Below, piece by piece: positions 9,089-61,404 of a DNA stretch of 64,000 nucleotides. The stretch's first letter is position 1, and each line of letters opens with the position of its first letter. This stretch comes from Polyangiaceae bacterium (lineage in GTDB: Bacteria; Desulfobacterota; Binatia; UTPRO1): assembly GCA_031400185.1 (NCBI GenBank), contig JANNPN010000214.1:5205-69204 (forward strand). Direction: 5' to 3'. Under the pieces are notes generated by a model. It saw nothing but the letters and a program-made list of their open reading frames with translations. It ran no database searches and was not told where the DNA came from. The position numbers were made by a program, and so were the translations under genes.

Positions 9089-9453
9089 TTCGAGTTGGAG
9101 CGAGGTGAAGCGGAAGCATCGAACGCGATCGCGAGCTCGTGTTGCACAACCTGCATGGGAACGGCGCCGACGCCTTCCCTTGCAATGACGATCACGTCAT
9201 GCCCGAGTGCGTCACGTGCCGGATGGCGTCGGAAGACCTCACGAATGCGGCGCTTCAGCCCGTTCCTGGTGACCGCATCACCGACCTTACGACTCACCGT
9301 CACGCCGAGCCTCGCCTCGCCAGACGTACGACGCATGAGCAACACGAAGCTCGCCGTCCGCCGCTTTTCGCCGGTCCGTCCCAATGACAAGAACTCCCGA
9401 CGACGACGAATGCGCGCCGCCTTGGGGAAGCCCTGGCCATGCCGGGGCGTCAT
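9085..9453 (-). CDS. rnpA: ribonuclease P protein component RnpA
   Basis: 122 aa basic protein, RRRxEF / KRRIRE motifs; start overlaps rpmH stop (ATGA). Confidence 0.85.
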
Positions 9454-9608
9454 CTCGGCTGCTTCGGAGGGATCGAGACGGTCAGTCGCTTGCGACCCTT
9501 GGCACGCCTGCGCTTGAGGATGTTACGTCCTCCGGGCGTGGCCATGCGGGCGAGAAACCCATGGGTTCGCTTGCGACGGGTGTTGCTCGGTTGAAATGTT
9601 CGTTTCAT
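9450..9608 (-). CDS. rpmH: 50S ribosomal protein L34
   Basis: Manual minus-strand translation [52 protein letters not shown]; below 60-aa ORF-track cutoff. Confidence 0.85.
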
Positions 9609-9654
9609 GAAGTGTCGGCCTATCCATCACAGCGGCTGGCCGCTGTCAATTTAC

Positions 9655-9882
9655 TCACGCCACTGCAGCAGGTTCCGCGGCTGCGGCCGCCGTTTTGGTC
9701 TTACCATGCTCATCGCACTTCGATCCGACCGCACGCGGCTTTCGACATGCTTCCGCGGTGCAGATCTTGAAGCGGCCCTTTGGAAGGGTGCCCTGTCGCC
9801 ATTGCTTGTAGTGCCGTGCGCAGTAGCCCTTGCCGACCGCGTCGCGCGCACATCCCTCGAACTTACAGCTACCCTTCGACAT
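9655..9882 (-). CDS. small Cys-rich protein with two tandem C-x4-C-x9-C-x2-H motifs (putative zinc-binding)
   Basis: 75 aa; CKFEGC..YCARH and CTAEAC..KCDEH repeats; basic, Ala-rich tail. Confidence 0.5.
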   Translation of the reverse strand: MSKGSCKFEGCARDAVGKGYCARHYKQWRQGTLPKGRFKICTAEACRKPRAVGSKCDEHGKTKTAAAAAEPAAVA

Positions 9883-10025
9883 TCGAAAACCTTCCTTCCG
9901 GACCTCGGCACGTCGCCGGCGCGAGGCAGCCGGGGTGTCTCACATAGGGCCGGGCATGGCAAGCAACCGCCCACCCACGAAGTTCCTATAGGAGCCGAAA
10001 GCACGACCTGGTAGGACGCCTGCGA

Positions 10026-10631
10026 ATGTCGCTCAAGTACGCCATCCTGAGCTTGCTCTCCCACGATCCGCTGACCGGCTACGAGCTCATGAAGCTCTTC
10101 GACGGCTCCGTCGGATACTTCTGGCACGCGACGCACCCGCAGATCTACAAAGAGCTCGGTCGGCTCGAACGCGCCGGGCAGGTCGTGCACCGCAGCGTCG
10201 AGCAGCGAGGACGGCCGACCAAGAAGATCTACTCGCTGAGCGACCTGGGTCGGAACGAGCTGCTCGAATGGCTACACGTTCCCGCCGGGACGCAGCGAGT
10301 CAAAGACGAGATGATGCTGAAGACTTTCTGCTGCGGCCTCTTGTCCGAGGCGGAAGCTCTGGACCTGGTCCGCCGCCATCGTCAGCAGCACGAGGTCAAG
10401 CTGCAACGCTACCAAGAGCTGGAGCGCTTTCTCGAGAGCGGCCTCAACACGGCGAACCGCGATCGACTCGGACCGTATCTGACGTTGCTTCGCGGCATCC
10501 GCTACGAGCGCGACTACATCGGGTGGTGCGACGAAGCCGTGCGGCTGCTCCGTCGGATCGACCACGCGCTCCCGCCGCAACCCGTGTCCCGAGAGATGAC
10601 CGCGAAAGCCCCGCGCAAACGCAGGAGCTGA
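10026..10631 (+). CDS. PadR family transcriptional regulator (with C-terminal dimerization domain)
   Basis: N-terminal wHTH LSLLSHDPLTGYELMKLF...WHATHPQIYKELGRLERAG characteristic of PadR. Confidence 0.85.
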   Translation: MSLKYAILSLLSHDPLTGYELMKLFDGSVGYFWHATHPQIYKELGRLERAGQVVHRSVEQRGRPTKKIYSLSDLGRNELLEWLHVPAGTQRVKDEMMLKTFCCGLLSEAEALDLVRRHRQQHEVKLQRYQELERFLESGLNTANRDRLGPYLTLLRGIRYERDYIGWCDEAVRLLRRIDHALPPQPVSREMTAKAPRKRRS

Positions 10632-10637
10632 CGCCTC

Positions 10638-13157
10638 TTACGACCCGGTCGGTTCGACCGTACCGGCGTCGTTGGCAACACCGTTTCCGGCTGTTCCGTT
10701 GCTGGTGCCGGTGCCGCCGTCCTCCTCGTCCTGTTCCGCAAGACGCGCGAGACTGACGACGCGCTCGCCTTCCTCGATGTCGATGAGGCGCACGCCCTGG
10801 GTGTTCCGACCGATCACGCGAATGTCCGCGACGCGGAGGCGAATGATTTTTCCCGTGCTCGTCACGAGCATCAGGTTGTCCTCATCCGTCACTTGCTGGA
10901 CGCCGATCACGGCGCCGGTCCGGTCCGTCGCCTTCATCGTGATGATGCCTTTGCCGCCGCGCGACTGGACCCGGTACTCGGCGATGTCGGTGCGCTTCCC
11001 GTAGCCGTTCTCCGCGACCGTGAGCACGCTTGCACCCGGGCTAAGGATCTCGAGGCTCACGACTTCGTCGTTTTCCTCGAGCGTGATGCCCTTCACGCCT
11101 CCGGCGCTCCGGCCCATGCTGCGGACGTCGCCTTCGGCGAAGCGAATCGCCTGGCCGTCGCGAGTCGTGAGGATCACCTCTTGTTGCCCGTCCGTGAGCC
11201 GGACGCCGATCAACTCGTCGTTCGTGTCGAGATTGATAGCGATGATCCCGGACGGACGCGGGTTCGCGTACGCCATCAGGTCCGTCTTCTTTACGACGCC
11301 TTGCTTCGTCGCGAAGAACACGAAGTGGTTCTCGCGGAACTCGCGGACCGGCAAGAAGGCAGAGATCTTCTCGTCAGGCTTCAGCTCGAGCAGGTTGACG
11401 ATGGCCTTGCCGCGCGCCGCCCGTCCTGCCTGCGGGACCTCGTGCACCTTGATCCAGTACACTTTGCCTGCGGTCGTGAAGAACAGGAGGAAGCTGTGCG
11501 TCGAGGCGATGAACAGGTGCTCGACGAAGTCTTCCTCGCGCGTCGTTGCGCCGATCTTGCCCTTGCCCCCGCGACGCTGGGCTCGGTACAGGGACACCGG
11601 GTTCCGCTTGATGTAGCCCTCGTGCGAGATCGTGACCGCCATGTCCTCGTCGGCGATCATGTCCTCGATCGAGATGTCGCCGATCTCGTCGACGATCTCC
11701 GTGCGTCGGGCGTCCCCGTACGTCTCTTTGAGGTCGCGCATTTCCTGAACGATGATCTTGGAGATTTCGCGCTCGTCCGAGAGGATCGCGCGCAAGCGCA
11801 CGATCAGCGCCTCGACCTCGCGGTACTCCTCGATGATCTTGTCGCGCTCGAGGTTCGTGAGCCGTTGCAAGCGCATGTCGAGGATCGCTTGTGCTTGCAG
11901 CTCGGACAGGGAGAACGTCGCGACCAAACCATCCTTGGCGATCGCAGGGTTTGCGGCTTTGCGGATGAGCGCGATCACCGCGTCGAGGTTCTCGATCGCG
12001 ATCTTCAAGCCTTCGAGGATGTGTAGCCGGTCCTCCGCCTTCCGCAGGTCGAAGATGGTCCGTCGAGTGACGACCTCGACTCGGTGGGCGACGAAGTGCT
12101 GCAGCATGGCCTTGAGACTCAGCAGCCGCGGGCGATTCTCGACGATCGCCAGCATGATCATCCCGAAGGACTCCTGCATCGGCGTCATCTTGTAGAGCTG
12201 GTTCAGCACGATCTCCGGCACGGCATCGCGCCGGAGCTCGACGACGACGCGCATGCCTTGCCGATCGGATTCGTCGCGGAGATCGTAGATGCCCTCGATA
12301 CGCTTCTCGTTCACGAGCTCCGCGATGCGCTCGAGGAGACGGGCCTTGTTCACTTGGTAGGGGATCTCCGTGACGATGATGCTCGTTCGATTGCTCTTCT
12401 TGTCGACCTCGGTGGTGGCGCGAGCGCGGACCTGCAGGACGCCTTTCCCGGTCTCGTAGGCTTCCCGGATCGGCCCCCTGCCGTGAATGAACCCGGCTGT
12501 CGGGAAATCCGGCCCTGGAACGTGTTGCATCAGCTCGACGACGGTGATCCCGGGGTTCGCGATCAGTGCGATCACTGCGTCGGTGAGCTCGTTCAGGTTG
12601 TGCGGCGGGATGTTCGTGGTCATTCCGACGGCGATCCCCGAGCTGCCGTTCAAGAGCAGGTTCGGAAGCTTCGCGGGCATCACCCGCGGCTCTTTCAGCG
12701 TCTCGTCGTAGTTCGGGCTGAACTCGACGGTCTCCTTGTCGAGGTCCGCCAGCAGCTCGCTCGCGATTCGCGCCATGCGGATCTCGGTGTACCGCATGGC
12801 GGCCGCCGGATCGCCGTCGACCGAGCCGAAGTTGCCCTGGCCGTCGACCAGCGGGTAACGCATCGAGAAGTCCTGCGCCATGCGAACGATGGCGTCGTAC
12901 ACCGCCGAGTCGCCGTGCGGGTGGTACTTGCCGATGACGTCGCCGACAACACGCGCCGACTTTTTGTAGCCCCGATTCCACTCGTTCCCGAGGTCGTACA
13001 TCGCGTAGAGAATGCGGCGATGCACCGGTTTCAACCCGTCGCGCACGTCGGGTAGCGCGCGGCGAATGATGACGCTCATTGCGTAGTCCATGTAGGACTG
13101 ACGCATTTCGTCTTCGATGTTGACCGGAATCCGGTTGTGCTTGAGCGGTGACTCCAT
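10638..13157 (-). CDS. gyrA: DNA gyrase subunit A
   Basis: 839 aa; [23 protein letters not shown], active-site Tyr region, C-terminal beta-pinwheel repeats. Confidence 0.95.
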
Positions 13158-47880: not shown

Positions 47881-48782
47881 GCCCTCCGGCGGGCGACCTC
47901 GGCGGCACGTTGCTGCGCGCGAGCGCCGCGGGGGAGACCGTGCGCGCGCTCGCTGCCATCACCACGGGTGTGGTCGAGGAGGCGCGCCAGCGCCACGGAA
48001 CCTACCCAACGGCAACCGCCGCGCTCGGGCGCACCCTCACAGCCGGACTGCTCCTCGGGGCGACGATGAAGGACGAGGAGGGGCTCTCGATCGAGATCGT
48101 CGGCGATGGCCCGCTCCGCCGCGTCATGGTGACGACGAACGGCCAGGGCCGCGTCCGCGGGTACGTCTCGCGGCCGGAGACCCACCTGCCGTCGAGGAAC
48201 GGCAAGCTCGACGTCGCGGGCGCGATCGGCGACGGTCTCCTCTGCGTCATGCGGACGCAACCGTGGAACAAGGAGCCCTACCGGAGCGTCATGAAGCTCG
48301 TCTCCGGCGAGATCGCCGAGGACATCACGCACTACCTGGTCACCTCGGAGCAGATGCCGTCGGCGACCGCGCTCGGTGTGTTCGTGAATGCGGACGGTGC
48401 GGTCGGGGCCGCGGGCGGCTACCTCGTGCAGATCCTGAACGGCGCCGCCACGGGGCTCGCGGAGCTGATCGAGCGGAACGTCGCGCGGTTGCCGCACGTG
48501 ACCAACCTCATCCGGCGTGGCGACGGTCCGGGGGAGATCCTGACCGCCGTGCTCGCTGGGCTCGAGATCCGCACGATCGCCGACGAGCCCGTGCGCTTCG
48601 CCTGCCCGTGCAGCCGCGAGCGCGTTCTCGGCGCGATCCTGTTGCTCGGTCCGCAGGAGATCGAGGACATGATCCGCACCGAGGGTCATGCCGAGGTGCG
48701 CTGCGAGTTCTGCGCCGAGCAATACCGTGTCGAGCGCGACGAGCTCACGATGCTCGTTCGCGAGACCCAAGGCTCGGCGTGA
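47877..48782 (+). CDS. hslO: redox-regulated chaperone Hsp33
   Basis: GTG in GTGA overlap with upstream stop; C-terminal zinc centre FACPCSRER...CEFCAEQY. Confidence 0.8.
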   Translation: MSPPAGDLGGTLLRASAAGETVRALAAITTGVVEEARQRHGTYPTATAALGRTLTAGLLLGATMKDEEGLSIEIVGDGPLRRVMVTTNGQGRVRGYVSRPETHLPSRNGKLDVAGAIGDGLLCVMRTQPWNKEPYRSVMKLVSGEIAEDITHYLVTSEQMPSATALGVFVNADGAVGAAGGYLVQILNGAATGLAELIERNVARLPHVTNLIRRGDGPGEILTAVLAGLEIRTIADEPVRFACPCSRERVLGAILLLGPQEIEDMIRTEGHAEVRCEFCAEQYRVERDELTMLVRETQGSA

Positions 48783-48801
48783 TGAAAGAAGGAACCCACC
48801 C

Positions 48802-49248
48802 ATGGACGTGACCCAGGCATTGCTCGGCGAGCACGGCATCGTGCACCTGCTCGTGGAACAGCTCGACGAGTCGCTCGATCGCCACCAGACAACGGCCGAG
48901 CTCCGCGCCGCCTCCGAACCGCTCGCGATCACGCTGCTCGGCCACGCCCGGATCGAGGACGAGACGTTGTTCCAGCCGTACGAGAAGCACACGGGCTCGC
49001 TCGGGCCGCTCAAGTGTCTCCGCCATGAGCACGAGCTCATGGATCAGCAAATCCGCGCGATGTTCCGCTTGCAGGATCCCGCCGTGCTGCGGGAGCAGAT
49101 CCGTGCCCTCCTCGATGTCACCCGCCGCCATCTGGCGCGCGAGGAGGAGGTGATGTTCAAGGCGGCGCGCGACGCGATCGAGCAGGGAGAGCTCGAGCAC
49201 CTGGGACACCACTGGGCGGAGTTCCGCGGCGTCCTGCTACGGGATTGA
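48802..49248 (+). CDS. hemerythrin HHE cation-binding domain protein
   Basis: GAAGGA RBS; His/Glu-rich helices HGIVH..E, HARIEDE, HEHE, HLAREEE. Confidence 0.7.
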   Translation: MDVTQALLGEHGIVHLLVEQLDESLDRHQTTAELRAASEPLAITLLGHARIEDETLFQPYEKHTGSLGPLKCLRHEHELMDQQIRAMFRLQDPAVLREQIRALLDVTRRHLAREEEVMFKAARDAIEQGELEHLGHHWAEFRGVLLRD

Positions 49249-49263
49249 CGGTCGCGCGGTCGC

Positions 49264-50091
49264 TCACGCCGAGGAGCCGGCGGCCGACCATTCGGGACGC
49301 GACGGTGCGGGGGGCTCGAGCGTCCGCGTGATCCAGTCTTCGAGGAGCGGGACGTCGGCGAATCCCGGGAGGTCGCGGATGGTCGCGTCGATCTTGCGCG
49401 CAGCGGCCAGGCCGTCGCAGCCCCCGAAGAGATAGCCGGCGACGAAGCGCATCTCCTCGTCGGGCTGTACGCCGCTGCCGACGGGTGCCCAATAGCGCTC
49501 GATCACTGCGCGCGCGATGCGCGCGGTCACGGGGCGCTGCAGACGGCGCTCGGCCTGCTTGAAGTAAAAGAAGAAGTGGCGCGACTCGTCGAGGACGATC
49601 CGATCGAGCAGATCGCGCAGCACGGGATGGTCGACGAGCGCGGCCATCCGGCGATACGCCATCAGCGTGGTGAGCTCGTTGATGGCCCCCCAAGTCATGT
49701 GGACGGCGACGAAGTCGGGCCAGACCCGGGCGAGCCATGAGGTCAGCCGCCGCTCGACCGCTTGCCGGAAGGTCGCGGTCGAGCGCGGCCGCATCGTGAT
49801 GTCGTGCCCCGCCGCCTGGACCAACCGCGCGAGCGCCACCCCGTGGAAGGTCTCCTCGTACACCCAGCACGCCAGGAACGTCGCGACCTCGGGATCGTCG
49901 ATCGCGCGCGTGTCGAGGAGCGCGCGCAAGTAGATGATCGTGTGGCTCTCGATGTCCTGCATGTAGCGCAACGTCCGTACCGCTTCTTGCGGCAGCGGAT
50001 GCTGCGGCACCTGCTCCCAGGCGATCGCCCGGATGTCCACCGCCCGCGAGCGGCTGAGGTACGCGTCGAGATCGATTGGTGACGCCGTCAT
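49264..50091 (-). CDS. acyl-ACP desaturase-like ferritin-fold diiron protein
   Basis: Two EExxH-type motifs (YEETFHG, DESRHF) in 4-helix context, 275 aa. Confidence 0.65.
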   Translation of the reverse strand: MTASPIDLDAYLSRSRAVDIRAIAWEQVPQHPLPQEAVRTLRYMQDIESHTIIYLRALLDTRAIDDPEVATFLACWVYEETFHGVALARLVQAAGHDITMRPRSTATFRQAVERRLTSWLARVWPDFVAVHMTWGAINELTTLMAYRRMAALVDHPVLRDLLDRIVLDESRHFFFYFKQAERRLQRPVTARIARAVIERYWAPVGSGVQPDEEMRFVAGYLFGGCDGLAAARKIDATIRDLPGFADVPLLEDWITRTLEPPAPSRPEWSAAGSSA

Positions 50092-50338
50092 CTGGTTGCC
50101 CTACGTGTCATGCCGCCTCCGCGGATGGACGGTGGATCTCGGTCTGCCAATCCGGCCAGCCCCACCTCGTCGTAGGACGCCAGAAGGCCTCGTGAGGACG
50201 CAACGACCATCATCCCCCCCCGGTGGACGCTTCGTCGCCGGCGCTCCGTCCGGCGCTGCGACTGCCGTGCTCTTGTGTAGCCACGTGCCGGGTCCGGTGT
50301 CCATGCATCGGGACTCTCGATCGGCCGGCAATGCTGCT

Positions 50339-50935
50339 ATGAGCCCCCGGCGGAGCGCACGGGTGGAACAAACCGAGGATATCGACGCCGGGCTGGTCGC
50401 ACGTATGGCGCTGGGCGACGAGTCGGCGTTGACGGCGCTCTACGATCGGCTGTCGTCGCTCGCATACGGCGTGGCACTCCGGGTGGCAGGCAACTCTGAT
50501 GCGGCCGAGGACGCGGTGCAGGAGGCATTCCTCAGAGTGTGGCGACGCGCCGACCGGTTCGACGCGAGCCGCGGCCGGGCACGGCCGTGGTTCCTGCGCC
50601 TGGTGCGGAACGTCGCCATCGACCAGCGGCGGGCGCGCGGCGTGCGCGACCGAGCCGAGACCGAGAAGATCCTCGACGTCAGCGACAAGATCCCCGCCGA
50701 CCAGCCGGATGACATCGCCTCGCGCGCCGAGCGGGCGACCCGGCTCCGCGCCGCGCTCGAGCAGCTTCTTCCGGTCGAGCAGCGGCGCGCGATCGAGATC
50801 GCCTATTTCGAAGGGCTCTCCCACAGTGAGATCGCCGAGCGCGAGGGCATGCCGCTCGGCACGGTGAAGACGAGGATCCGCGACGGCGTGCTGCGCCTGC
50901 GGGCGTTCCTCGGACGTGACGGTCATGGCGCCTGA
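50339..50935 (+). CDS. ECF RNA polymerase sigma factor
   Basis: Region 2 AVQEAFLRVWRRADRF and region 4 HTH; start at internal ATG. Confidence 0.85.
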   Translation: MSPRRSARVEQTEDIDAGLVARMALGDESALTALYDRLSSLAYGVALRVAGNSDAAEDAVQEAFLRVWRRADRFDASRGRARPWFLRLVRNVAIDQRRARGVRDRAETEKILDVSDKIPADQPDDIASRAERATRLRAALEQLLPVEQRRAIEIAYFEGLSHSEIAEREGMPLGTVKTRIRDGVLRLRAFLGRDGHGA

Positions 50936-51692
50936 GCTCGAGACGAACATCGACGAGCGCGAGCTCGACGACCTCGCCATCGAGGCATTGGCGGAAGCCT
51001 ACGCCGCGCCGGCCCCGCCGCGTCTCCGCGAGCGGATCGTCGCGGCCGTCGACCGCGAGCGCGAGCGTGGGCGTTCGGCCCGGACCGTCCAGCGCACCCG
51101 GGTCGTGGGCGCGCTCGCGGCGAGCCTGGCGCTCGTATTCGCGGGCCTCTTCGCCCGCGAGCTGCAACGCGGGCGCGAGAGCGGGATCGAGCTTGCGGCG
51201 CTCGCGCGTCAGAACGAGCTTCTGGCCCAGCAGAACGGGGTGCTCGCGACTCGCCTCGACGAGCAAGGGCGGGAGATCGTCGAGCAGCGACGCGTCCTCA
51301 CGGGTCTGCACGAGGCGCTCGAGTCGCAGTCGCAAGTGCTGCGCCTCGTCGGCGGGCCGCGCGTGCGGACGGCAACGCTGGCGCCGCAGAAAGGCGTCAC
51401 CGGCACCGGGCGGGTGCTCGTCGACGCTGCGAGCGGCGATGCCGCGATCGTGCTTTCCGGCCTGCCGCCGCTCGAGGAGGGCAAGACCTACGAGCTCTGG
51501 GTGATCCGCGGCAAGAAAGCGCCCGAGCCCGCAGGTCTCGTCGCCGTCAGCGACGCGCACGGAGGCGCCGTGCGGATGCCGTCGGTACCGCGTCCGAATG
51601 AGGTCACGGCGTTCGCGGTGTCGATCGAGCCCCGCGGCGGGTCCACGTCGCCGACGGGTCCCATCGTCCTGGTCGGCCCGGTCGCCGGATAG
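50916..51692 (+). CDS. anti-sigma factor, RskA-like (anti-sigma-K C-terminal domain)
   Basis: N-terminal anti-sigma helix, one TM, C-terminal YELWVI...VSIEP domain; overlaps sigma gene. Confidence 0.7.
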   Translation: MTVMAPELETNIDERELDDLAIEALAEAYAAPAPPRLRERIVAAVDRERERGRSARTVQRTRVVGALAASLALVFAGLFARELQRGRESGIELAALARQNELLAQQNGVLATRLDEQGREIVEQRRVLTGLHEALESQSQVLRLVGGPRVRTATLAPQKGVTGTGRVLVDAASGDAAIVLSGLPPLEEGKTYELWVIRGKKAPEPAGLVAVSDAHGGAVRMPSVPRPNEVTAFAVSIEPRGGSTSPTGPIVLVGPVAG

Positions 51693-51709
51693 CGACGGAT
51701 GGGTCCCGG

Positions 51710-54079
51710 CTACACCAACGACGCCACGGTCACGCCCGGGCCGCCGGCGTTCGGCTCGGCATCGTGGAATGACGTCGCGTAGGTCGTACGGGCGAGGAGC
51801 TCGAGCACCGCGCGCTTGAGCGCGCCCGTCCCGAGCCCGTGGATGATGCGAACGGTGGGAACGCCGGCCGACTGTGCCCGGTCGAGGAACTGCTCGAGGC
51901 GGCTCAGCGCCTCGCGCACCCGCATGCCGACCAGGTGGAGCTCGTTCGGCGCGTCGTCGTCCACCGGGGGGCGTCGGCGCGGCGCCGGCGATTGCGCCGC
52001 AGCGTCAGGCAAGCGCCGCCGGAGGTTCGCGAACGGGGCCTGGAATGTGAGCGCTCCGCTGCGGAGGCGCGCCGTCTCGCCGTGGATCTCGATCAGCTCG
52101 CCCCGGATGCTGGTGCCGCGGACTTCCACGTTGTCTCCCAACCGCGGAGGCTCGGTGTCCTCGGGCTCGGCCCCCGCGACGGCGGCGGCACGCTCGGCGA
52201 TCGCGGTCGTCGCGGTGTGGGCGAACTCCCCAAGCACCTTGCTGGCGCCGGGCTCGCGCCGGCGGACGATGTCGAGCGCGGCGCGTCCCTCCGCCTTGAG
52301 CTCGCGGACGAAGGCGCGGGCCTCGTCGAGCTCGCTGCTCCAGCGCTGCCGCCGGCGTTCGGCAAGCTCCGCCACCAGGGTCGCGTGCTCGGCTTCGAGG
52401 GCGGCGAGCGCGTTGCGCTCCTCGTTCAACGCGGCCAGCTCGTCCTCATAGCGGCGCCGGCTCGTCTCGAGGCTCGCGATCGCCGTCGCGAGCTCGCGCG
52501 CCGCGGCGGCGCGGCCCGCCTCCGCCGCGTCGAGCACGTCCGCCGGCATCCGGAGGCGGCGCGCCATCGCGAGCCCGAGGCTCTCGCCGACGGAGCCGTA
52601 CACGAGACGGTAGCGCGGTGTGAAGCTCACCGGGTCGATGTCGACGGCGACGAGCTCGACGCGCGGCTCGTTCAGCGCGTAGAGCTTGACCGGTGCGTAG
52701 TGCGTCGCGGCCGCGAGGAGCACGCCGCGTGCGATCAGACGGTCGATGAGCGCGACCGCGAGCGCCGCTCCCTCCTCCGGATCGGTGCCGCCTCCCGGCT
52801 CGTCGAGCAGCACCAGCGCGGGCGGAGCGAGCCCGGCGAAGACGTCGACTAGGTTCACGACGTGCGAGGAGAAGGTGGAGAGGTTGCGTTCGATGCTCTG
52901 GTCATCGGCGAGGTCGGTGAAGACGCCCTCGACCCAGGGGACGATGCTGCCCTCGTCGGCAGGCACGAGGAGGCCGGCCCGCGCCATGAGCGTGAGGAGG
53001 CCGAGGGTCTTCAAGGCGACGGTCTTGCCGCCGGTGTTCGGTCCGCTGACGACGAGCGCGTACTTGCCGGCGCCGAGCCGGATGTCGATCGGCACCACGG
53101 TCGTCTGCCCCGCGAGCACGAGCTCGGGGTGGCGCGCGCGCCGGAGGTCGATGGCGCCGTCGCCGAACGTCGGAGACGTGGCTTGGAGGCGTCGCGCGAG
53201 CACGACGCCAGCGTTCAGCGCGTCGACCTCCGCGAGCGCGGCGGCGGCGCGACCGAGCTCGTCCCGCACGGTGCCGACCTGTGCCGTCAGCAGGGTGAAG
53301 AGCCGTCGCTCCTCGCCCTCCTCCTCCTTGCGGACCAACAGCAGGCGGTTGTTCATGTCGATCGCGAACATCGGCTCGATGAAAAGGGTCTCGCCCGAGA
53401 CCGACCGGTCCTGCACGACCCCCGGGAGGCGTGTCGCCGTCGACGCTTTCACCGGCACGACGAATCTGTTGTTGCGGATGGTGACGTAGCGGTCGGCGAT
53501 GCCGGAGCTCTCGCCGCTCACGACGAGCCGCCCGAGCCGGTCTTCCAAGTCCTGGCGCAGGTCGCGGAGTGCTCTCCTGAGCTCGGCGAGGCGCGGGCTC
53601 GCGTCGTCGTGTAGGAGGCCGGTGTCGTCGAGCATACGGGACAACGCCGCCTCGAGCTCGGGCAACGCCGCGAGGCGCTGCGGCAGGTCGGCGAGCGTCG
53701 GCATCGTCGCGATCCGGGCGGCGAGGAAGCGCCGGACGAGCTCCACTTGCCGAAGCACCGTCCGGATCTCGACCAGACGATCACCCGGGAGCATCGCCCC
53801 GTCGTGGCTCGCGAGGGCGAGCGACTCGCGGACGTCCGGAAAGCTCCCGAGCGGCAAGGCCCCGTGCACCTCGACGAGCCGAAAGAAGCTCCACTGGCGG
53901 TCGAGGGCCCGCTCGGCGGCCGACCGCGTCGGAAGCGGCGTGCGCCCGCGACAGACCTCTGCCCCCGGAGGCGACACCGCGAGCGCCGCGAGCGCGTCCA
54001 GCACCCGCGGAAAACCCAGCACTTCGAGGTCGCGAGGTCGCACGTCGTCGGTGCTACTGGAGGCCTGCCGTGGTGGCAA
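51710..54079 (-). CDS. mutS2: endonuclease MutS2 (MutS domains + C-terminal Smr)
   Basis: Walker A SGPNTGGKTVALKT, C-terminal Smr LHLVGMRVREAL...IIHGLGTGALKRAV. Confidence 0.85.
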   Translation of the reverse strand: MPPRQASSSTDDVRPRDLEVLGFPRVLDALAALAVSPPGAEVCRGRTPLPTRSAAERALDRQWSFFRLVEVHGALPLGSFPDVRESLALASHDGAMLPGDRLVEIRTVLRQVELVRRFLAARIATMPTLADLPQRLAALPELEAALSRMLDDTGLLHDDASPRLAELRRALRDLRQDLEDRLGRLVVSGESSGIADRYVTIRNNRFVVPVKASTATRLPGVVQDRSVSGETLFIEPMFAIDMNNRLLLVRKEEEGEERRLFTLLTAQVGTVRDELGRAAAALAEVDALNAGVVLARRLQATSPTFGDGAIDLRRARHPELVLAGQTTVVPIDIRLGAGKYALVVSGPNTGGKTVALKTLGLLTLMARAGLLVPADEGSIVPWVEGVFTDLADDQSIERNLSTFSSHVVNLVDVFAGLAPPALVLLDEPGGGTDPEEGAALAVALIDRLIARGVLLAAATHYAPVKLYALNEPRVELVAVDIDPVSFTPRYRLVYGSVGESLGLAMARRLRMPADVLDAAEAGRAAAARELATAIASLETSRRRYEDELAALNEERNALAALEAEHATLVAELAERRRQRWSSELDEARAFVRELKAEGRAALDIVRRREPGASKVLGEFAHTATTAIAERAAAVAGAEPEDTEPPRLGDNVEVRGTSIRGELIEIHGETARLRSGALTFQAPFANLRRRLPDAAAQSPAPRRRPPVDDDAPNELHLVGMRVREALSRLEQFLDRAQSAGVPTVRIIHGLGTGALKRAVLELLARTTYATSFHDAEPNAGGPGVTVASLV

Positions 54080-54876
54080 ATCTCGCGGCTCCGCGCGAGA
54101 ATCCGCCGGTGGAGATCGCCGGCGCGAACGCGCTCGTCACCGGGGCGTCGAGCGGCATCGGCGCGACCGTCGCGCGGGCGCTCGCAGCGAGGGGGGCGCG
54201 GGTGGCACTCGTCGCACGTCGCGCCGACCGTCTGGATGCGCTGGCGCGCGAGATGCCCGCCGGCAGCGCTGCCGCGTTCGCGTGCGACGTCCGCGATCCG
54301 GACGCGATCGGCGCGACCGTCGCTGCGGTGACGGACCGCTTCGGCCCCGTCAGCCTGCTCGTCAACAACGCGGGCGTCGGACGTTACCTCTCGTTTCTCG
54401 ACAGCAGCCCCGAGGATGTGGCGGCGGTCTTCGAAACCAATCTGCACGCGGCCCTCCACTTCACGCGCGCGGTGCTACCGGGGATGCTCGCCCGCCGGCA
54501 CGGGCACCTCGTGAACGTCGCATCGATTGCTGCCCGCATCGGGTCGCGGAACCACACGATCTATTGCGCGTCCAAGTTCGCCCTCGCCGGCTTCAGCGAG
54601 AGCCTGCTGCTCGAGCTCGAGGGCAGCGGTGTGGGCATCACGCTCGTGACCCCGGGGATCATCGCGACGCCGTTCTTCGATCACGCGTCGTTTGGGTCTT
54701 TTCCGGCGAGCGCCCGCGCGCGCGCGATCCCCCCGGAGCGAGTGGCAGCGGCGATCGTACGCGCCGTCGTACGCGGCGCTCCGGAGATCACTGTGCCCTC
54801 CACGTACGCAATCGGCACGATGCTGAAGACCGTGGCACCGGGTTTCTTTCGCCGGTTGATGCGCCGATTCGCCTGA
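54070..54876 (+). CDS. SDR family oxidoreductase (start may be GTG at 54109)
   Basis: ALVTGASSGIGATVARALAARGA, NNAG, YCASKFAL motifs. Confidence 0.8.
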   Translation: MVANLAAPRENPPVEIAGANALVTGASSGIGATVARALAARGARVALVARRADRLDALAREMPAGSAAAFACDVRDPDAIGATVAAVTDRFGPVSLLVNNAGVGRYLSFLDSSPEDVAAVFETNLHAALHFTRAVLPGMLARRHGHLVNVASIAARIGSRNHTIYCASKFALAGFSESLLLELEGSGVGITLVTPGIIATPFFDHASFGSFPASARARAIPPERVAAAIVRAVVRGAPEITVPSTYAIGTMLKTVAPGFFRRLMRRFA

Positions 54877-54910
54877 ACGCGCATCTCGCTCTTGTCACCT
54901 CGGCCGGCCG

Positions 54911-55855
54911 TTGGTACTTCAGCCCACTGCATTGCGCCGCCGTGGGGGTCACGGCGCCGTCGACGGAGGGTTCTCGAGGGTGGCTGACGGAAAGCGCAAG
55001 CTCGCGGTCGTCGATTTGGGGCGAGCTGGGGCCGGCACCGAGCCCGCGTCGAAGGTTCGGCGCCGAACCATCAAGCCCGACCGTCTCCGCCGTTCGCCAC
55101 CGGACGAGTTCGGCCTCGACCCGGAGTTCCGCTCCCGCGCGCTCCCGTTCTTTGAGGCGCTCTACGAGAAGTACTGGCGCGTCGACGCGCGTGGCGCACG
55201 GAACGTCCCGAAGCACGGCCCGGTGATCCTCGTCTCGAACCATTCCGGGGCGCTGCCGTTCGACGCGACCATGATCGCGTGCGCGCTCGAGAAAGCGCGC
55301 CACCCGCGCGCCGCCCGCTTCCTCTACGACCGCTTCGTCGAGAACCTCCCGCTCGTGCCGACCTTCTACAAGAAGGCCGGCGGGGTGGTTGCGAGCCGCG
55401 AAAACGCCGCCCGTCTGCTCGAGAAGGGTGAGCTGATCGGCCTCTTCCCCGAAGGTGTGTCGGGCCTCTCGAAGCTCTACTCCGAGCGCTACGTCCTCCA
55501 GCCGTTCAGCGGCGGCTTCGTACGCCTCGCGCTCCGCTTCGGGGCGCCGATCGTGCCGGTCGCGGTCGTCGGCGCGGAGGAAATCTACCCGCTCGTCGGT
55601 CGTCTGAAAGGCATCGGCAAGATGCTGGGCGCGCCGTACCTTCCGGTCACCCCCTTTTTCCCGTTGCTCGGACCGCTCGGCATGATCCCCCTGCCGAGCA
55701 AATGGCAGATCCGGTTCGGAAAGCCGATCGAGCTCGGAACGGCCGCGGCCGACCGTCTCGACGGCACGGCCGTTCGTGCCATGGCGGAGCAGGCCAGGCG
55801 GCGCGTCCAGGCGATGGTGCGCGCGCTGCTGAAGGAGCGCGACTCGATCTTCTGA
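54911..55855 (+). CDS. lysophospholipid acyltransferase (PlsC/LPLAT family)
   Basis: HxxxxD box VSNHSGALPFD and FPEGVSG motif. Confidence 0.75.
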   Translation: MVLQPTALRRRGGHGAVDGGFSRVADGKRKLAVVDLGRAGAGTEPASKVRRRTIKPDRLRRSPPDEFGLDPEFRSRALPFFEALYEKYWRVDARGARNVPKHGPVILVSNHSGALPFDATMIACALEKARHPRAARFLYDRFVENLPLVPTFYKKAGGVVASRENAARLLEKGELIGLFPEGVSGLSKLYSERYVLQPFSGGFVRLALRFGAPIVPVAVVGAEEIYPLVGRLKGIGKMLGAPYLPVTPFFPLLGPLGMIPLPSKWQIRFGKPIELGTAAADRLDGTAVRAMAEQARRRVQAMVRALLKERDSIF

Positions 55856-55969
55856 CGCGTGCCATCCGGGCGAAAGGTTGGCACAGAGTGCGCGCGCCCG
55901 GCACTGCGCCTTGGCAAAGCGCATCGGCAACCCGCGAGACTCACGGGGCGATTCGCTGGGGCATGACGG

Positions 55970-56920
55970 TTGCTCCGTACGACAGTCGAGATGTCACGTC
56001 GTCGCGCCTTCGTCCTCGTTCAGCTGGTCGCCGTCGCCGCTGCGGCCGCCTGCATCCTCACCCTCCATGCGGCCACCAGCCCGGCGCAGACGACATGCAT
56101 TCTCGTGGCCCTCGCCGTCGCGGCGAGCCTCGGAGTGGGCACGCTCCGAACGCTCGACCGCGAGATCATAGTCCGCCAGGACGCGCGGCGACTCAAGACC
56201 GAGATGCTCGCGAACGTGTCTCACGAGCTCCGCACCCCGCTGAACGCCATCCTCGGCTACGCCGAGATCATCGACTCCCTCCCCGGCCTCCCCGAGTCCG
56301 AACGCCGCGACATCAACGCGCGCATCCTCTCGAACGCCGTCACGCTCACCTGCGCGGTCAACAACCTCCTCGAGTACTCGTCGGTCGTCGCCGGCGAGAC
56401 CGCTGTCCGCCGCGCCAGCGTGTCGCTCTCCGAGCTCTTCGAGGAGATCGAGCCCTGGGTCGGACGCCTCATCGACGACAAGCCTGTGCGCTTTGCGTGG
56501 GATGTCGATCCGACGCTTCCCGCGATCGACACCGACCGCGGGAAGCTCCGCCAAACCCTCCTGAACTTGCTCTCGAACGCTGCCAAGTTCACCCTGCGCG
56601 GCGAGATTCGTCTCTCGGCCGCGTCCGGCCCCGCGGGTGTCGAGATCGCGGTGATCGACACGGGCGTTGGGATGAGCCCGGACCAGCAGTCGATCATCTT
56701 CGAGGATTTCCGTCAGGTCGAAGGCTCGATCACACGGCCGTTCGGCGGCATGGGTCTCGGCCTCACGCTCGTCCGCCGCTTTTCCGAGCTCTTGGGCGGA
56801 AGCGTCGCGGTCGAGAGCGCCCCTGCCAAGGGAACCCGCGTGTCGCTTCGCTTGCCCTTAACGCAGCCGCAGATTGGCCATTTCCCGCTTGAGGTCGTGC
56901 GCACGCCGGCCGCCGCCTGA
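55970..56920 (+). CDS. sensor histidine kinase, 2-TM minimal type, paralog of 39553..40407
   Basis: H-box NVSHELRTPLNAILGY, HATPase_c boxes. Confidence 0.8.
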   Translation: MLRTTVEMSRRRAFVLVQLVAVAAAAACILTLHAATSPAQTTCILVALAVAASLGVGTLRTLDREIIVRQDARRLKTEMLANVSHELRTPLNAILGYAEIIDSLPGLPESERRDINARILSNAVTLTCAVNNLLEYSSVVAGETAVRRASVSLSELFEEIEPWVGRLIDDKPVRFAWDVDPTLPAIDTDRGKLRQTLLNLLSNAAKFTLRGEIRLSAASGPAGVEIAVIDTGVGMSPDQQSIIFEDFRQVEGSITRPFGGMGLGLTLVRRFSELLGGSVAVESAPAKGTRVSLRLPLTQPQIGHFPLEVVRTPAAA

Positions 56921-57088
56921 CACACCGCCACGCTTTCGTCATGTCGACTCCCAACTTCACCATCGTAACCCTGCATCCGCCCGGCGACGCCGCCGAGGTC
57001 GAGGTCGGCACGTGGGTTGCAAACGTCGTCAACGGGTCCGTGAATGATTGGTACGCTCGCCCACACGGGCGCGCGACAGGAGGTCGTG

Positions 57089-57244
57089 ATGGAAACGCAA
57101 TCGCAACTTACGCTCCTCGATCTGATCGAAGCCGTCGCCGAGGTCACCGATTCCGAAGCCGAGCAGGTGAGCGTCGTGGCTCATCTCGTCAATAGCGGCC
57201 GCGTCCGTCTGACCGGGAACTTTCGCGGTTCGATGCTGCGCTAG
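57089..57244 (+). CDS. hypothetical small protein (51 aa)
   Basis: AGGAGG RBS 6 nt upstream of ATG; acidic helical peptide; no homology recognised. Confidence 0.3.
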   Translation: METQSQLTLLDLIEAVAEVTDSEAEQVSVVAHLVNSGRVRLTGNFRGSMLR

Positions 57245-57302
57245 GCGCGCGTAGCGAACCGATTTCCGTCGTCGCGCTCGACGGTGCTAGGAAAGCCCGT
57301 CA

Positions 57303-58052
57303 ATGAGCGAGCCCGTGCGGATCATCGGCAGCTACGTTTCGCCGTACGTGCGGAAGGTCCTGGTCATCCTCGACCTCAAGGGCATTCCGTACGAGATCGA
57401 CCCCATCATCCCCTTCATGGGGAGCGACGAGTTCTCGAAGCTCAGTCCCGTCCGCCGCATTCCCGTCCTCACCGACGACCAGGTCACGCTGACCGATTCC
57501 ACGGTCATCTGCGAGTACCTGGACGAGCGTCATCCCGATCCGCCCGTGCTGCCCGCGGGTGCCGCCGCGCGCGGCCGCGCCCGCTGGCTCGAGGAGTTCG
57601 CCGACACGCGCATGGGCGAGGTCTTCATCTGGCGGCTCTTCAACCAGGTGATGATCAACCCCTTCGTGTGGGGCGTCCCGACGGACAAGGAGGTCCTCGA
57701 CCGTACGCTGCAGGAGGACATCCCGCACGTGCTCGACTATCTCGAAGCCGAGGTGCCGTCCGAGGGCTTCCTCTTTGGTCCGGTTTCGGTCGCCGACGTG
57801 GCGATCGCCTCGTTCTTCCGGAACGCCGCCTACGCGTACTACCGCGTCGACGCCGCGCGCTGGCCGAAGACCGCGGCCTTCGTCGCACGCGTGCTCGCGA
57901 CCGCGCCGTTCCAGAAGCTCGTGCCGTTCGAGGACGCGATGATGAAGAACCCGCCGGCGCAGCAGCGCGAGGCGCTCGCTGCGATCGGCGCGCCGCTCAC
58001 CCGCACGACATGCGGCACGACGACACCACGCCGCGGGCTCATGAGGATCTGA
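57303..58052 (+). CDS. glutathione S-transferase
   Basis: GST N-terminal thioredoxin-like fold (SPYVRKV, IPVL) and C-terminal helical domain. Confidence 0.8.
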   Translation: MSEPVRIIGSYVSPYVRKVLVILDLKGIPYEIDPIIPFMGSDEFSKLSPVRRIPVLTDDQVTLTDSTVICEYLDERHPDPPVLPAGAAARGRARWLEEFADTRMGEVFIWRLFNQVMINPFVWGVPTDKEVLDRTLQEDIPHVLDYLEAEVPSEGFLFGPVSVADVAIASFFRNAAYAYYRVDAARWPKTAAFVARVLATAPFQKLVPFEDAMMKNPPAQQREALAAIGAPLTRTTCGTTTPRRGLMRI

Positions 58053-58924
58053 TGTCGTCCGCCCCCCGGCCGCCGCTCACCGTCATCATCCCGGCCGCCC
58101 ATCCCTGGCCCGCCGTCGAGTCCACGCTCGACTCCCTGGTGCCGCAGGTCGCGCGCGTCGGCGGCGAAGTGCTGCTGGTCTCGGGCGTGCCCGACGCGCT
58201 CCCGACCCCGCCTCCGCCCGGCGTCCGCGCGCGCATCATGGATTCGCGCGACGCGTTCATCCTCCGGCTCGACGCGATGCGGAGCTCGGCCGGCGAGATC
58301 ATCGCGATCGGCGAAGACCACGTGCTGTATTGCGACGACTGGGTCGAGCAGGTGCTGCGCGCATTCGCGGAAAACCCCCGGATCGCGGGTTTCATGGGCT
58401 CGGTCTCGAACGGCAAGACCAGCACGCTCGACCGCGCGTCCTTCTGGGTCACGCTCGCGCCCTGGAGCGCGCCGATGGCGACGCTCTCGCTCGACCGCAC
58501 GCCGGTCCCCGGCAATCTCGCGGTCCGCCGCACGGTGATCGAGGACCTCGTCGAGCCCGGCGTCTTCGAGTACGAGATCGTGCCGCGCTTGCTCGCGACC
58601 GGTGCGCTCCGCGGCAACGACCGCCAGCGCGTGGTGCACGACCAGTCGCTCGGGCGGATCGGCTCCTGGGTCACGCACTTCGCGAGCGGACGCGCGTACG
58701 GCGCCGCCGACGGGCGCTGTAGCCGCTGGCGGCGTCTCCGCGAGGCCGTGAAGGCCCCGGCCGTCATCCTCGGACAGACGCGCGCGGCCTGGCGTGCGCC
58801 CGGGCGCCGTGACGACACCCGCGGGTGCCAAATGCTGGTCGCGGCGCTCGGCGTCACCAACGGGCTCGGCCAGATCACCGGGATCCTCTTCGGGCCCGGC
58901 GACTCCGGCTCACGGATCGTTTGA
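58052..58924 (+). CDS. glycosyltransferase family 2-like protein
   Basis: ATG in ATGA overlap with GST stop; LTVIIPAAHPWPAVESTLDSL GT-A N-term, CDD acidic motif; distal part of 546-aa ORF. Confidence 0.55.
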   Translation: MSSAPRPPLTVIIPAAHPWPAVESTLDSLVPQVARVGGEVLLVSGVPDALPTPPPPGVRARIMDSRDAFILRLDAMRSSAGEIIAIGEDHVLYCDDWVEQVLRAFAENPRIAGFMGSVSNGKTSTLDRASFWVTLAPWSAPMATLSLDRTPVPGNLAVRRTVIEDLVEPGVFEYEIVPRLLATGALRGNDRQRVVHDQSLGRIGSWVTHFASGRAYGAADGRCSRWRRLREAVKAPAVILGQTRAAWRAPGRRDDTRGCQMLVAALGVTNGLGQITGILFGPGDSGSRIV

Positions 58925-58962
58925 TCTCCGCCCTGCTCCGATGGCTCGCCTGATTTCGGCCG

Positions 58963-60285
58963 TCAGCGCGGGACCCGACCGGTGAGCGTGCAGTTGCCGA
59001 AGCGGTCCATCACGGCGCGGTCGCCGGTGCGAAGCCAGCCGTTCGCACCCAGCACCGCCGCAGTCGCTTCGGGCCGCTCGTAGTAGCCGCACATGACCGA
59101 GGGGCCGCGGCAGCAGAGCTCGCCTTCGGCGCCGGTCGCGACCTCGACCCCGCTCGTCGGGTCGACGATCTTCACCTCGACGTCGAGGAGCGCGCGACCC
59201 GCGGTCGTGGCGCGCAGATCGATCGCGTCGTCCGGACGCGTCTGTGTGACGATCGCGGTCGTTTCGGCGAGCCCGTAGCCGACGCTGAGCTCCGGGAGGT
59301 GGAGCCGCGCGATCGCCTCCGGCACGAGCCCGACCGGGCACGCCCCGCCCGTCACGAGGCCGGTGCGGAGCGACGAGACGTCCGCGCGCAGCACGTCCGG
59401 ATGGCGCAGCATCGAGACCAGCATGCGCGGCTCGGCAAGGACCGCGGTCGCGCGCTCGGCCGCGATCGCCGCGAGCGTCCGTCCGGCGTCGAAATGCTCG
59501 GACGGAACGATGACCGTCGCGCCGCGGCCGAGGGGCGTCAGGATACCAACCACGCTGCCGTACGGCCGCGCGAACGACACCGGCACGCACAGGCGGTCCG
59601 CGCGTCCGAGCCGCATGCAGTCGCCGACCGCGGCCGCGTTCGCGACGACGCTTTGGTGGGTGAGCTTGACGCCCTTCGCGTCGCCGGTCGTGCCCGCGGT
59701 GTACTGGACGGTCGCGAGGTCGGTCGGCGCGACCGCCTCCTGACGGCGACGGAGCAGATGATCCGTGATGCCCGCGCCGGCGGCGACGACGTCGGCCCAG
59801 GGGAGCACGCCGCCCGCCGGCGCCTCGGTTCCGAGCGCGGCGATGCGTTTCAGCACGGGAAAGCGTCGGCTCGAGAAACGGCCCGCCGGGCGCTGTCGGG
59901 CGTCCGGATCGCACTCGTAGAACACGTCGGCGAGGCTCAGGCCGTCGGCGGTATCGGCGAGAAAGAGCGTCGACGCCTGCGCGTCGGCGAGCACGTGCGC
60001 GAGCTCGGCGGCATCCGCGCGTGGGTCGACCGGCACGAGCACCGCCCCGACCTTGGCGACCGCGAGCTTCAGCAGCACCCACTCGACGCGATTGGTCGAG
60101 AAGACAGCGACGTGATCGCCGGGATCGACACCGAGGCCCATGAGGCCCTTGGCGAGCTGCCTCGTACGCGCGTGGACCTCGCGGTACCGCCAATGCACGC
60201 CCTGATCCGGCGAGACGAGCGCGTCGCGCTCACCCGCCCCGAGCGCGACCCGGTCGAAGAAGTCGCCGATCGCGAGCCGCTCCAT
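58963..60285 (-). CDS. AMP-dependent synthetase/ligase lacking the C-terminal subdomain (possible pseudogene)
   Basis: A3 TAGTTGDAKG, A5, A7 WLRTGD present; ORF stops inside A8 (LTGRVPR*), 38 bp from convergent gene. Confidence 0.65.
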   Translation of the reverse strand: MERLAIGDFFDRVALGAGERDALVSPDQGVHWRYREVHARTRQLAKGLMGLGVDPGDHVAVFSTNRVEWVLLKLAVAKVGAVLVPVDPRADAAELAHVLADAQASTLFLADTADGLSLADVFYECDPDARQRPAGRFSSRRFPVLKRIAALGTEAPAGGVLPWADVVAAGAGITDHLLRRRQEAVAPTDLATVQYTAGTTGDAKGVKLTHQSVVANAAAVGDCMRLGRADRLCVPVSFARPYGSVVGILTPLGRGATVIVPSEHFDAGRTLAAIAAERATAVLAEPRMLVSMLRHPDVLRADVSSLRTGLVTGGACPVGLVPEAIARLHLPELSVGYGLAETTAIVTQTRPDDAIDLRATTAGRALLDVEVKIVDPTSGVEVATGAEGELCCRGPSVMCGYYERPEATAAVLGANGWLRTGDRAVMDRFGNCTLTGRVPR

Positions 60286-60323
60286 GTCGCGGCTTCTACC
60301 ATCCGTGCTAGGAAACGCACGCC

Positions 60324-60941: not shown

Positions 60942-60951
60942 TAGCGCGTCG

Positions 60952-61392
60952 TCAGCGCACGAACGGCGTCGTCGCCTGCGCGAGCGCGTCGTCGATGCGG
61001 ATGCGGTGAACCGGCATCAAGTCCGGCGGCCACGCCGGCGGCGCGCACCACGCGAGCCCCGCCGTCTCGTCGCCGAGCGTCAGCACGCCGCCGGTCGGAC
61101 GGCAGACGAAGCACGTGCTCACGAAGTGGAAGACGTTTCCGTCGGGGTACGTGATGATCTGATGATGGTCGGGGTGGGAGTAGACCCCGACCAGTCGCTC
61201 GACCGCGACCGTCAGGCCGGTCTCCTCGAGCACCTCGCGGTGCAGCGCTTCGAGGATCGACTCGCCGAACTCGATGGCACCGCCCGGCAGTCCCCAGCGC
61301 CCGTTGTCGGTGCGCTGCTGGAGCAGCACGCGGCCGTCGGTGTCGAGGATCACGGCCGACGCGCCGGGACGGATCTGTCGGGTCGTCGCCAT
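60952..61392 (-). CDS. NUDIX hydrolase
   Basis: Nudix box GGAIEFGESILEALHREVLEETG. Confidence 0.8.
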   Translation of the reverse strand: MATTRQIRPGASAVILDTDGRVLLQQRTDNGRWGLPGGAIEFGESILEALHREVLEETGLTVAVERLVGVYSHPDHHQIITYPDGNVFHFVSTCFVCRPTGGVLTLGDETAGLAWCAPPAWPPDLMPVHRIRIDDALAQATTPFVR

Positions 61393-61404
61393 GGGGACGC
61401 TCGC

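Follow-up and report, generated by a model that had tools for sequence, protein, structure and literature searches.

The locus described here raises the question of what a very small, cysteine-rich protein, encoded just upstream of the ribosomal protein gene rpmH, might do in the bacterium that carries it. The gene lies in a stretch of 64,000 nucleotides (the window, in what follows) from a genome assembly labelled Polyangiaceae bacterium (GCA_031400185.1, contig JANNPN010000214.1, positions 5,205 to 69,204 of the forward strand), and consists of an open reading frame (ORF) encoding a 75-aa, VegA-like protein with two predicted zinc fingers. Our analysis identifies this ORF as a conserved gene, and its product is most reasonably read as a nucleic-acid-binding zinc protein.

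The defining character of the protein is the spacing C-x4-C-x9-C-x2-H, which occurs twice, at residues 6-24 and 41-59. When the six-frame translation of the window was scanned with the regular expression C.{4}C.{9}C.{2}H, two matches were obtained against a chance expectation of about 0.05 (calculated from Cys/His frequencies), and both fall in the 75-aa ORF, whose gene is present in one copy in the window. The ORF list and the motif scan thus bear out the initial annotation, which had described a 75-aa ORF with two such copies and an Ala-rich tail. The protein has a mass of 8 kDa, an isoelectric point (pI) of 9.7 and a core net charge of about +10.6. Its parts are the following.

9655..9882, stop included, minus strand: the 75-aa ORF with an ATG start, taken from the ORF list; its product is MSKGSCKFEGCARDAVGKGYCARHYKQWRQGTLPKGRFKICTAEACRKPRAVGSKCDEHGKTKTAAAAAEPAAVA.
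9811..9867, minus strand: finger 1, C6-x4-C11-x9-C21-x2-H24, CKFEGCARDAVGKGYCARH (CKFEGC..CARH), delimited by the motif scan and the invariant ligands.
9763..9810, minus strand: the remainder of the finger-1 helix and a conserved basic linker, Y25..I40, YKQWRQGTLPKGRFKI, delimited by conservation.
9706..9762, minus strand: finger 2, C41-x4-C46-x9-C56-x2-H59, CTAEACRKPRAVGSKCDEH (CTAEAC..CDEH), delimited by the motif scan and the invariant ligands.
9658..9693, minus strand: an Ala-rich, slightly acidic C-terminal tail, residues 64-75, predicted to be disordered (predicted local distance difference test score, pLDDT, below 50; pI of the tail 4.05).

The predicted helix of finger 1 runs on to residue 30, with the conserved HY..WR.G. 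Sixteen residues lie between finger 2 and the C-terminus, and the tail includes the stretch AAAAAEPAAVA.

A search of 5.8 billion proteins recovered 92 homologues of 68-119 aa with 59-100% identity, all of them named 'hypothetical'. All eight Cys/His residues are invariant in the resulting 92-sequence alignment as well as in a second alignment of 89 sequences, and so are Y20 and W28. Besides the ligands, the positions invariant among the 92 sequences are K7, Y20, Y25, W28, R37 and E44, and K3, G4, G17-K18-G19, R23, R29, G31, L33-P34-K35, Y38-K39, R47-K48-P49-R50, K55 and E58 are conserved in at least 90% of them. Over its 62-codon core, the ORF differs from four relatives at 25-34 third codon positions and at 7-18 first or second positions, and the ratio of nonsynonymous to synonymous substitution rates (dN/dS) is 0.09-0.22. 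Two overlapping or antisense ORFs (135 aa on the plus strand and 179 aa on the minus strand) were rejected as alternatives, the invariant Cys/His residues and the third-position changes fitting the frame of the 75-aa ORF only. The sequence of the tail is not conserved; its low-complexity Ala/Pro/Glu character is kept, at lengths of up to about 60 aa. With a profile built from diverse small members and a cutoff of E<=1e-8, 1079 clusters (defined at 90% identity) were retrieved; their proteins measure 70-130 aa and combine two fingers with a tail rich in Ala, Pro and Glu. In the layout of the family, the first ~62 residues contain C-x4-C-x9-C-x2-H followed by C-x4-C-x8-11-C-x2-H, together with the linker (G/A)KGYC..HY..W(R/K).G..P..RYK; the ORF product fits this layout, carries the linker and, with its 75 aa (homologues 68-122 aa) and its low-complexity tail, lies within the ~70-120 aa typical of the family. 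The 75-aa ORF is a real gene under purifying selection, as borne out by the 92 homologues, the 1079 clusters and the range of dN/dS, and by a conserved Shine-Dalgarno sequence and upstream block. The G+C content at third codon positions (GC3) of the ORF, 0.67, is about that of rpmH (0.66), the other neighbours having values of 0.72-0.87.

The two fingers had been proposed to result from an internal duplication. Segments covering either finger were taken from 239 distinct members of the family and compared as two profiles with hhalign. They aligned in register with a probability of 97.2% and an E-value of 3.9e-11, the four ligand columns matching by construction since the segments had been picked with a CCCH regular expression. 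The duplication is thus recovered, and a true duplication is supported as well by distant members such as P0187, in which finger 2 retains the full GYC..HF..W signature of finger 1. Each of the two tandem fingers would hold one zinc ion through Cys-Cys-Cys-His. AlphaFold2 models reached a mean pLDDT of 68.9 with the 92 close homologues and of 73.6 with 89 more diverse homologues, the fingers scoring ~80-84 and the tail less than 50 in the latter. This better model contains beta bridges 5/14 and 17/20 in finger 1 and 40/49 and 52/55 in finger 2, together with helices 22-30 and 57-60, each of which begins at C-x2-H. As modelled, each finger would consist of a knuckle, a small hairpin and a helix, in a treble-clef-like layout.

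Comparison of the AlphaFold model with PDB structures using Foldseek gave no significant match. The best local resemblance was to A20 ZF7, superposed on one finger (27 residues at 1.4 Å, E 7.2, not significant), and the other non-significant matches were to the 30S chains 7ooc_M and 5o5j_N (60-61 residues) and to the 70S chain 4wq1_5I (E 3.6-7.7). Sequence and profile searches of the PDB returned nothing beyond a low-complexity match to eL19 (E 9.8). A20-type and other treble-clef fingers (C-x2-4-C-x11-C-x2-C) resemble those of the ORF product in ligand spacing and in the predicted knuckle-hairpin-helix, where the first helix turn provides the last two ligands. However, A20 fingers bind ubiquitin in eukaryotes, whereas the ORF product has no sequence relationship to them and uses His as its last ligand.

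The initial annotation had assigned the protein to no recognised family. On the contrary, its finger is a unit of the Zf_WRKY19/DUF5763 type, found N-terminal to HNH, EndoVII and GIY-YIG nucleases, and some family members bear the name 'vegetative protein'. The ORF belongs to a named, functionally uncharacterised family, and its finger type is catalogued in Pfam yet unstudied; our literature searches found no relevant paper on vegA/vegetative protein or on the DUF5763/PF24906 finger. Finger 1 (residues 6-24) matches Pfam Zf_WRKY19 (PF24906) at 18.1 bits (threshold 27, E 0.0023), and the ORF product matches DUF5763 (PF19067) at 13.3 bits (threshold 26.3, E 0.059), while an NCBIfam search of the 75-aa protein gave no match. 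The orthologues P0056, P0059, P0078, P0085 and P0088, along with multi-repeat relatives, do exceed the Pfam thresholds. Consequently, the unit in the ORF product is a divergent relative rather than a formal member of Zf_WRKY19 or DUF5763.

The wider distribution of the unit was evaluated by searching the family profile against 1.84 billion representative proteins, which yielded 6702 proteins at E<=1e-3, of which 849 also reached E<=1e-10. Long proteins containing 4-26 copies of the finger unit head the list. Among 110 such multi-repeat relatives scanned with Pfam, matches were found to Zf_WRKY19 (53), HNH (21), HNH_5 (17), HNH_3 (14), Endonuclease_7 (10), GIY-YIG (4) and LAGLIDADG_3 (1). Residues 5-63 of the ORF product align with profile positions 8-71 of 171 of phrog_5351 (E 8.9e-9) and residues 2-63 with positions 36-101 of 361 of phrog_1271 (E 2.3e-8); both profiles are named 'HNH endonuclease', and the matched parts are N-terminal and non-catalytic only. 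A tblastn search of phage genomes also found matches in actinophage genes annotated as endonuclease VII and HNH endonuclease. Together, the Pfam, PHROG and tblastn matches identify the unit as a zinc finger that precedes the catalytic domain of homing-type nucleases. The Pfam scan of the 75-aa protein detected no HNH, HNH_3, HNH_5 or Endonuclease_7 domain, and since the polypeptide ends at residue 75 without an HNH catalytic domain, it is not a nuclease.

The phage and actinobacterial HNH, EndoVII and GIY-YIG nucleases share with the ORF product the unit C-x4-C-x9-(G/A)x(Y/L/W)C-x2-H-Y-x-(R/K)-W. They differ from it in several respects. The ORF product has no nuclease domain and exactly two fingers, its family possesses a specific conserved linker (G-x-LPK-x-RYK), and its finger 2 has diverged, with loss of the GYC/HY..W signature. 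Moreover, the ORF is chromosomal, single-copy and fixed in its synteny, unlike a gene of a mobile element.

These relatives guide our reading of the function. The finger module in front of the nuclease catalytic domains would most plausibly target DNA. The ORF product, which has this module but no nuclease, is predicted to bind nucleic acid. The ligand would most likely be DNA in double-stranded form, recognised with little sequence specificity or through a short motif. It may be an abundant housekeeping protein, either nucleoid-associated or modulating transcription in general. DNA would be favoured over RNA because the same finger precedes DNA nucleases, and we give binding to DNA as a nucleoid-associated or general transcription protein slightly less than an even chance. 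Its housekeeping character is seen in a chromosomal synteny that extends over 82 loci, beside gpsA, rpmH-rnpA-yidD-yidC or dapB, and in a GC3 like that of rpmH. Several points weigh against this interpretation. DNA binding by the finger in the nucleases is itself deduced from domain architecture, and the conserved, exposed aromatics Y20, Y25, W28 and Y38 would equally suit single-stranded nucleic acid or RNA. In addition, the tail is acidic to neutral and not histone-like, the gene stands beside rpmH-rnpA in about half of the loci, which is compatible with a role linked to RNA or the ribosome, and the ORF product misses the Pfam threshold of Zf_WRKY19 (18.1 versus 27 bits).

Signals for the expression of the gene were sought on both of its sides, and the neighbouring genes were identified from the ORFs.

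9890..9899, minus strand: a Shine-Dalgarno-like sequence, GGAAGGAAGG, 7 nt before the ATG of the ORF, identified from the sequence; AGGAGG or GGAAGG stands at the equivalent place in 10 related loci.
9936..9963, minus strand: a promoter-like block, CTTGCCATGCCCGGCCCTATGTGAGACA (TTGCCA-N12-TGTGA), in the intergenic region between the PadR gene and the ORF, conserved in 8-10 related loci with PadR upstream.
9619..9652, minus strand: a promoter-like block, AAATTGACAG-N11-TGTGATGGATAGG, between the stop of the ORF and the ATG of rpmH, conserved in four related loci (L003, L004, L006 and L008).
9450..9608, minus strand: rpmH (ribosomal protein L34), 46 nt downstream of the ORF, identified from its translation.
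10026..10631, plus strand: a divergent PadR-family regulator, identified from its ORF and from homologous neighbours with Pfam PadR and Vir_act_alpha_C.
10638..13157, minus strand: gyrA, beyond the PadR gene.

Across related loci, the block located ~55-80 nt upstream of the ORF has the conserved form CTTGCCATGcc-N-ATGTGA(G/A)ACA, and the one in the gap between the ORF and rpmH the form AAATTGACAG-N11/12-TGTGATGGATA(A/G)G. Both contain TTG[AC]CA-N12-TGTGA, a pattern found exactly twice when both strands of the window were scanned, at 9627-9649 and 9940-9962 on the minus strand, with a roughly estimated expectation of ~0.06. The two sites could be of a shared promoter type, or sites for a shared regulator. 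The block at 9936..9963 presumably acts as the promoter of the ORF, which would be transcribed from this conserved element of its own and translated from a strong ribosome-binding site. Judging from the second block, rpmH probably has its own promoter; with this promoter-like block after the stop of the ORF, rpmH could be transcribed independently of the ORF, and no terminator-like site was detected on the coding strand between the two genes. We also observed that rpmH has no Shine-Dalgarno sequence and that its ATG lies ~18 nt past the conserved TGTGA (9609-9654, minus strand), a layout kept in the same four loci, which suggests that the L34 mRNA has a very short leader or none. An Rfam scan for structured RNAs or riboswitches found none in the whole window.

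The ORF list places the ORF between rpmH-rnpA and the divergent PadR regulator, in agreement with the initial annotation; downstream of it come rpmH, rnpA, yidD, yidC and mnmE, transcribed in the same direction. The initial annotation had further treated the neighbourhood of rpmH as the defining context of the gene and named its conservation in relatives as a check. We examined this in 82 distinct loci, 78 of which are informative upstream and 70 downstream.

Upstream, 58/78 loci: gpsA, on the same strand, with gaps of ~4-190 nt.
Upstream, 10/78 loci: a divergent PadR gene (the closest relatives, as in the window).
Upstream, 1/78 loci: gyrA.
Upstream, 9/78 loci: other genes.
Downstream, 38/70 loci: rpmH-rnpA(-yidD-yidC).
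Downstream, 27/70 loci: dapB.
Downstream, 5/70 loci: other genes.

Conservation next to rpmH therefore holds for 38 of the 70 loci and fails for the 32 others (dapB in 27, another gene in 5). The rpmH-linked loci come from at least 2 phylum-level groups and include a Candidatus Binatia genome (L001), while the dapB-linked loci include a 'delta proteobacterium' metagenome-assembled genome (L002). The ORF of the window, with rpmH-rnpA downstream and PadR upstream, is arranged as in the 10 closest loci, and gpsA is absent from the entire window. As a defining context, however, the linkage to rpmH does not stand, given that gpsA is the steadier neighbour, that dapB takes the place of rpmH in 27 loci and that rpmH has a promoter-like element of its own. 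The last two points also weaken the idea of an obligatory operon with rpmH, and the adjacency of the two genes looks like housekeeping gene order rather than a functional operon.

Opposite gpsA-veg (veg being the gene of this family), or opposite veg on its own where gpsA is missing, a divergent gene for a PadR protein with Vir_act_alpha_C is conserved, and it always comes after gyrA (the window and L003, L004, L008, L026, L029, L032 and L035-L037). This regulator may control veg or the gpsA-veg unit.

Other features of these loci were noted as well. Between ~5700 and 18500 of the window, the order on the minus strand is dnaA .. gyrB - gyrA - [PadR, opposite strand] - ORF75 - rpmH - rnpA - yidD - yidC - mnmE, unlike the classical divergent rpmH/dnaA arrangement. 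A jag/khpB gene lies between yidC and mnmE in L003, L004 and L008 and is absent at this place in the window. In the loci of the most distant members (L012, 3634-4573; L014, 3645-4600), a small conserved ORF with a hydrophobic N-terminus and no Pfam match stands on either side of the veg-like gene (112/85 aa and 107/90 aa, respectively), an HD-GYP response regulator is encoded nearby, and rpmH, gpsA and dapB are not adjacent. Finally, the G+C content of the window rises from ~0.63-0.65 to 0.70-0.72 at 48000-62000, in its last quarter, and this region may be of different origin or gene content.

An association with the ribosome or with RNA is the main rival to DNA binding. The ORF product would then be a lineage-specific zinc ribosomal protein, an assembly factor or an accessory of RNase P or tRNA processing, acting with the products of rpmH and rnpA. 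Such a role would agree with the position of the gene, which immediately precedes rpmH-rnpA-yidD-yidC in the same orientation both in the window and in 38/70 loci from at least two phylum-level groups, and with the lack of a terminator-like site before rpmH. The small, very basic, Cys-rich product and the GC3 equal to that of rpmH point in the same direction, as do the weak, non-significant Foldseek matches to 7ooc_M, 5o5j_N and 4wq1_5I (E 3.6-7.7). The proteins bL31, bL32, bL33, bL36 and uS14 are small, basic, Cys-rich zinc-binding ribosomal proteins, to which the ORF product is similar in size, basicity and Cys-based zinc site, and its gene stands beside that of a ribosomal protein. They differ in their CxxC pairs, where the ORF product has C-x4-C ... 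C-x2-H, and the adjacency of the ORF to rpmH is not universal, dapB or another gene following it in 32 of the 70 loci. The conserved promoter-like block of rpmH right after the stop of the ORF argues against such a role too, as does the steadiest neighbour being gpsA (58/78), a gene of lipid synthesis. Moreover, no ribosomal protein family of Pfam or NCBIfam was matched, and the fusion partners of the homologous fingers are DNA nucleases instead of enzymes acting on RNA. We regard a ribosomal or RNA-related role as rather unlikely.

Somewhat less likely still is a protein that acts through protein contacts, either as an adaptor that binds RNA polymerase as DksA and RbpA do, or as a zinc or redox sensor that releases the metal of its Cys3His sites under stress. 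Many small bacterial zinc-finger proteins do act through protein contacts, the best local structural resemblance is to the ubiquitin-binding finger A20 ZF7 (E 7.2, not significant), and the divergent PadR neighbour hints at regulated expression. However, neither Pfam nor NCBIfam linked the sequence to the families of DksA/TraR, RbpA or the ZAS anti-sigma factors, nucleic acid is suggested as the ligand by the fusions to nucleases and by a net charge of about +10, and the conserved partner genes across loci are housekeeping enzymes only. The last alternative, a now functionless, nuclease-less remnant of a homing HNH endonuclease or a spurious ORF in GC-rich DNA, finds some agreement in the shortness of the ORF, in a GC3 of 0.67 that is below most neighbours and in the N-terminal parts of phage HNH endonucleases being the sole significant annotated similarities, but the conservation data (over 1000 clusters that share its two-finger architecture and its size, a conserved start codon and Shine-Dalgarno sequence, dN/dS of 0.09-0.22, synteny fixed in 82 loci without mobile-element signature, and a motif found twice in one frame where 0.05 would be expected per window) effectively exclude it.

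Two further roles suggested by the surroundings of the gene were rejected. The initial annotation had located the ORF at the core of the replication origin. The Walker-A motif of dnaA is at ~17981 (minus strand), ~8 kb from the ORF, with gyrB at ~15472 (minus strand); DnaA boxes number 3 in the window versus 2.1 expected, none of them near the ORF, and the GC skew has a shallow, broad minimum at 12-16 kb without a sharp switch. With the distance of dnaA, DnaA boxes at chance level and the shallow skew, that location is unsupported, and a role of the ORF at an origin of replication was rejected on these grounds. A YacG-like gyrase inhibitor, considered in view of the nearby gyrA and gyrB, was dismissed on the grounds that there is no Pfam or NCBIfam match, that the ligand pattern is another one and that adjacency to gyrA is lost in many loci.

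The name of the family deserves separate consideration. NCBI gives the name 'vegetative protein' to three members, MBI4412504.1, MBX7148216.1 and TMA83030.1, all of which are small two-finger proteins. P0334, from the cluster that contains TMA83030.1, is 69% identical to the ORF product, and the ORF product matches profiles that include P0286, P0298 and P0334 with E-values of 2.5e-24 and 6.6e-27. We take 'vegetative protein' to be the Swiss-Prot name of VegA from Myxococcus xanthus. Komano, Franceschini and Inouye are said to have described VegA in 1987 (J Mol Biol) as having a strong vegetative promoter and an unknown function, and to have proposed that it is DNA-binding or histone-like. The link of the ORF to M. 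xanthus VegA rests on the transfer of the NCBI name to the three members only, and no Myxococcus-labelled protein appeared among the matches listed in three homology searches, one of which was seeded with 'vegetative protein' members. According to the supplementary data of PMC6791715, the 'Vegetative protein' of M. xanthus DK1622 is MXAN_7401 (537 nt, 178 aa), with nsd (MXAN_7402) on one side and a tryptophan 2,3-dioxygenase gene on the other. In the same data, its RNA is present at 324-1580 units through growth and development and climbs from 324 to ~1580 in development. This increase is at odds with the name of the protein. MXAN_7401 differs from the ORF in being more than twice as long and in not being located beside rpmH, gpsA or dapB.

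The ORF family is a widespread 'known unknown' and as such would not surprise a specialist. It comprises more than 1000 sequence clusters in fixed housekeeping synteny, its members being among the small proteins that are often missed or left as 'hypothetical' and, if the NCBI name is right, its namesake in M. xanthus has been on record for nearly four decades without an assigned role. A DNA-targeting finger of homing endonucleases may have been domesticated without the nuclease into a highly expressed, single-copy and unrecognised class of nucleoid-associated proteins in Myxococcota, Binatia-like and other 'delta-proteobacterial' lineages, or the gene may encode an unrecognised, lineage-specific ribosomal protein beside L34; we consider this proposal doubtful. 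Identification of the ligand would reveal either a bacterial chromatin or transcription protein of a new type, derived from a mobile-element finger, or a new component of the ribosome in poorly studied bacterial groups. It would also be a first entry point to the function of the Zf_WRKY19/DUF5763 finger, repeats of which occur in thousands of proteins from bacteria, phages and eukaryotes.
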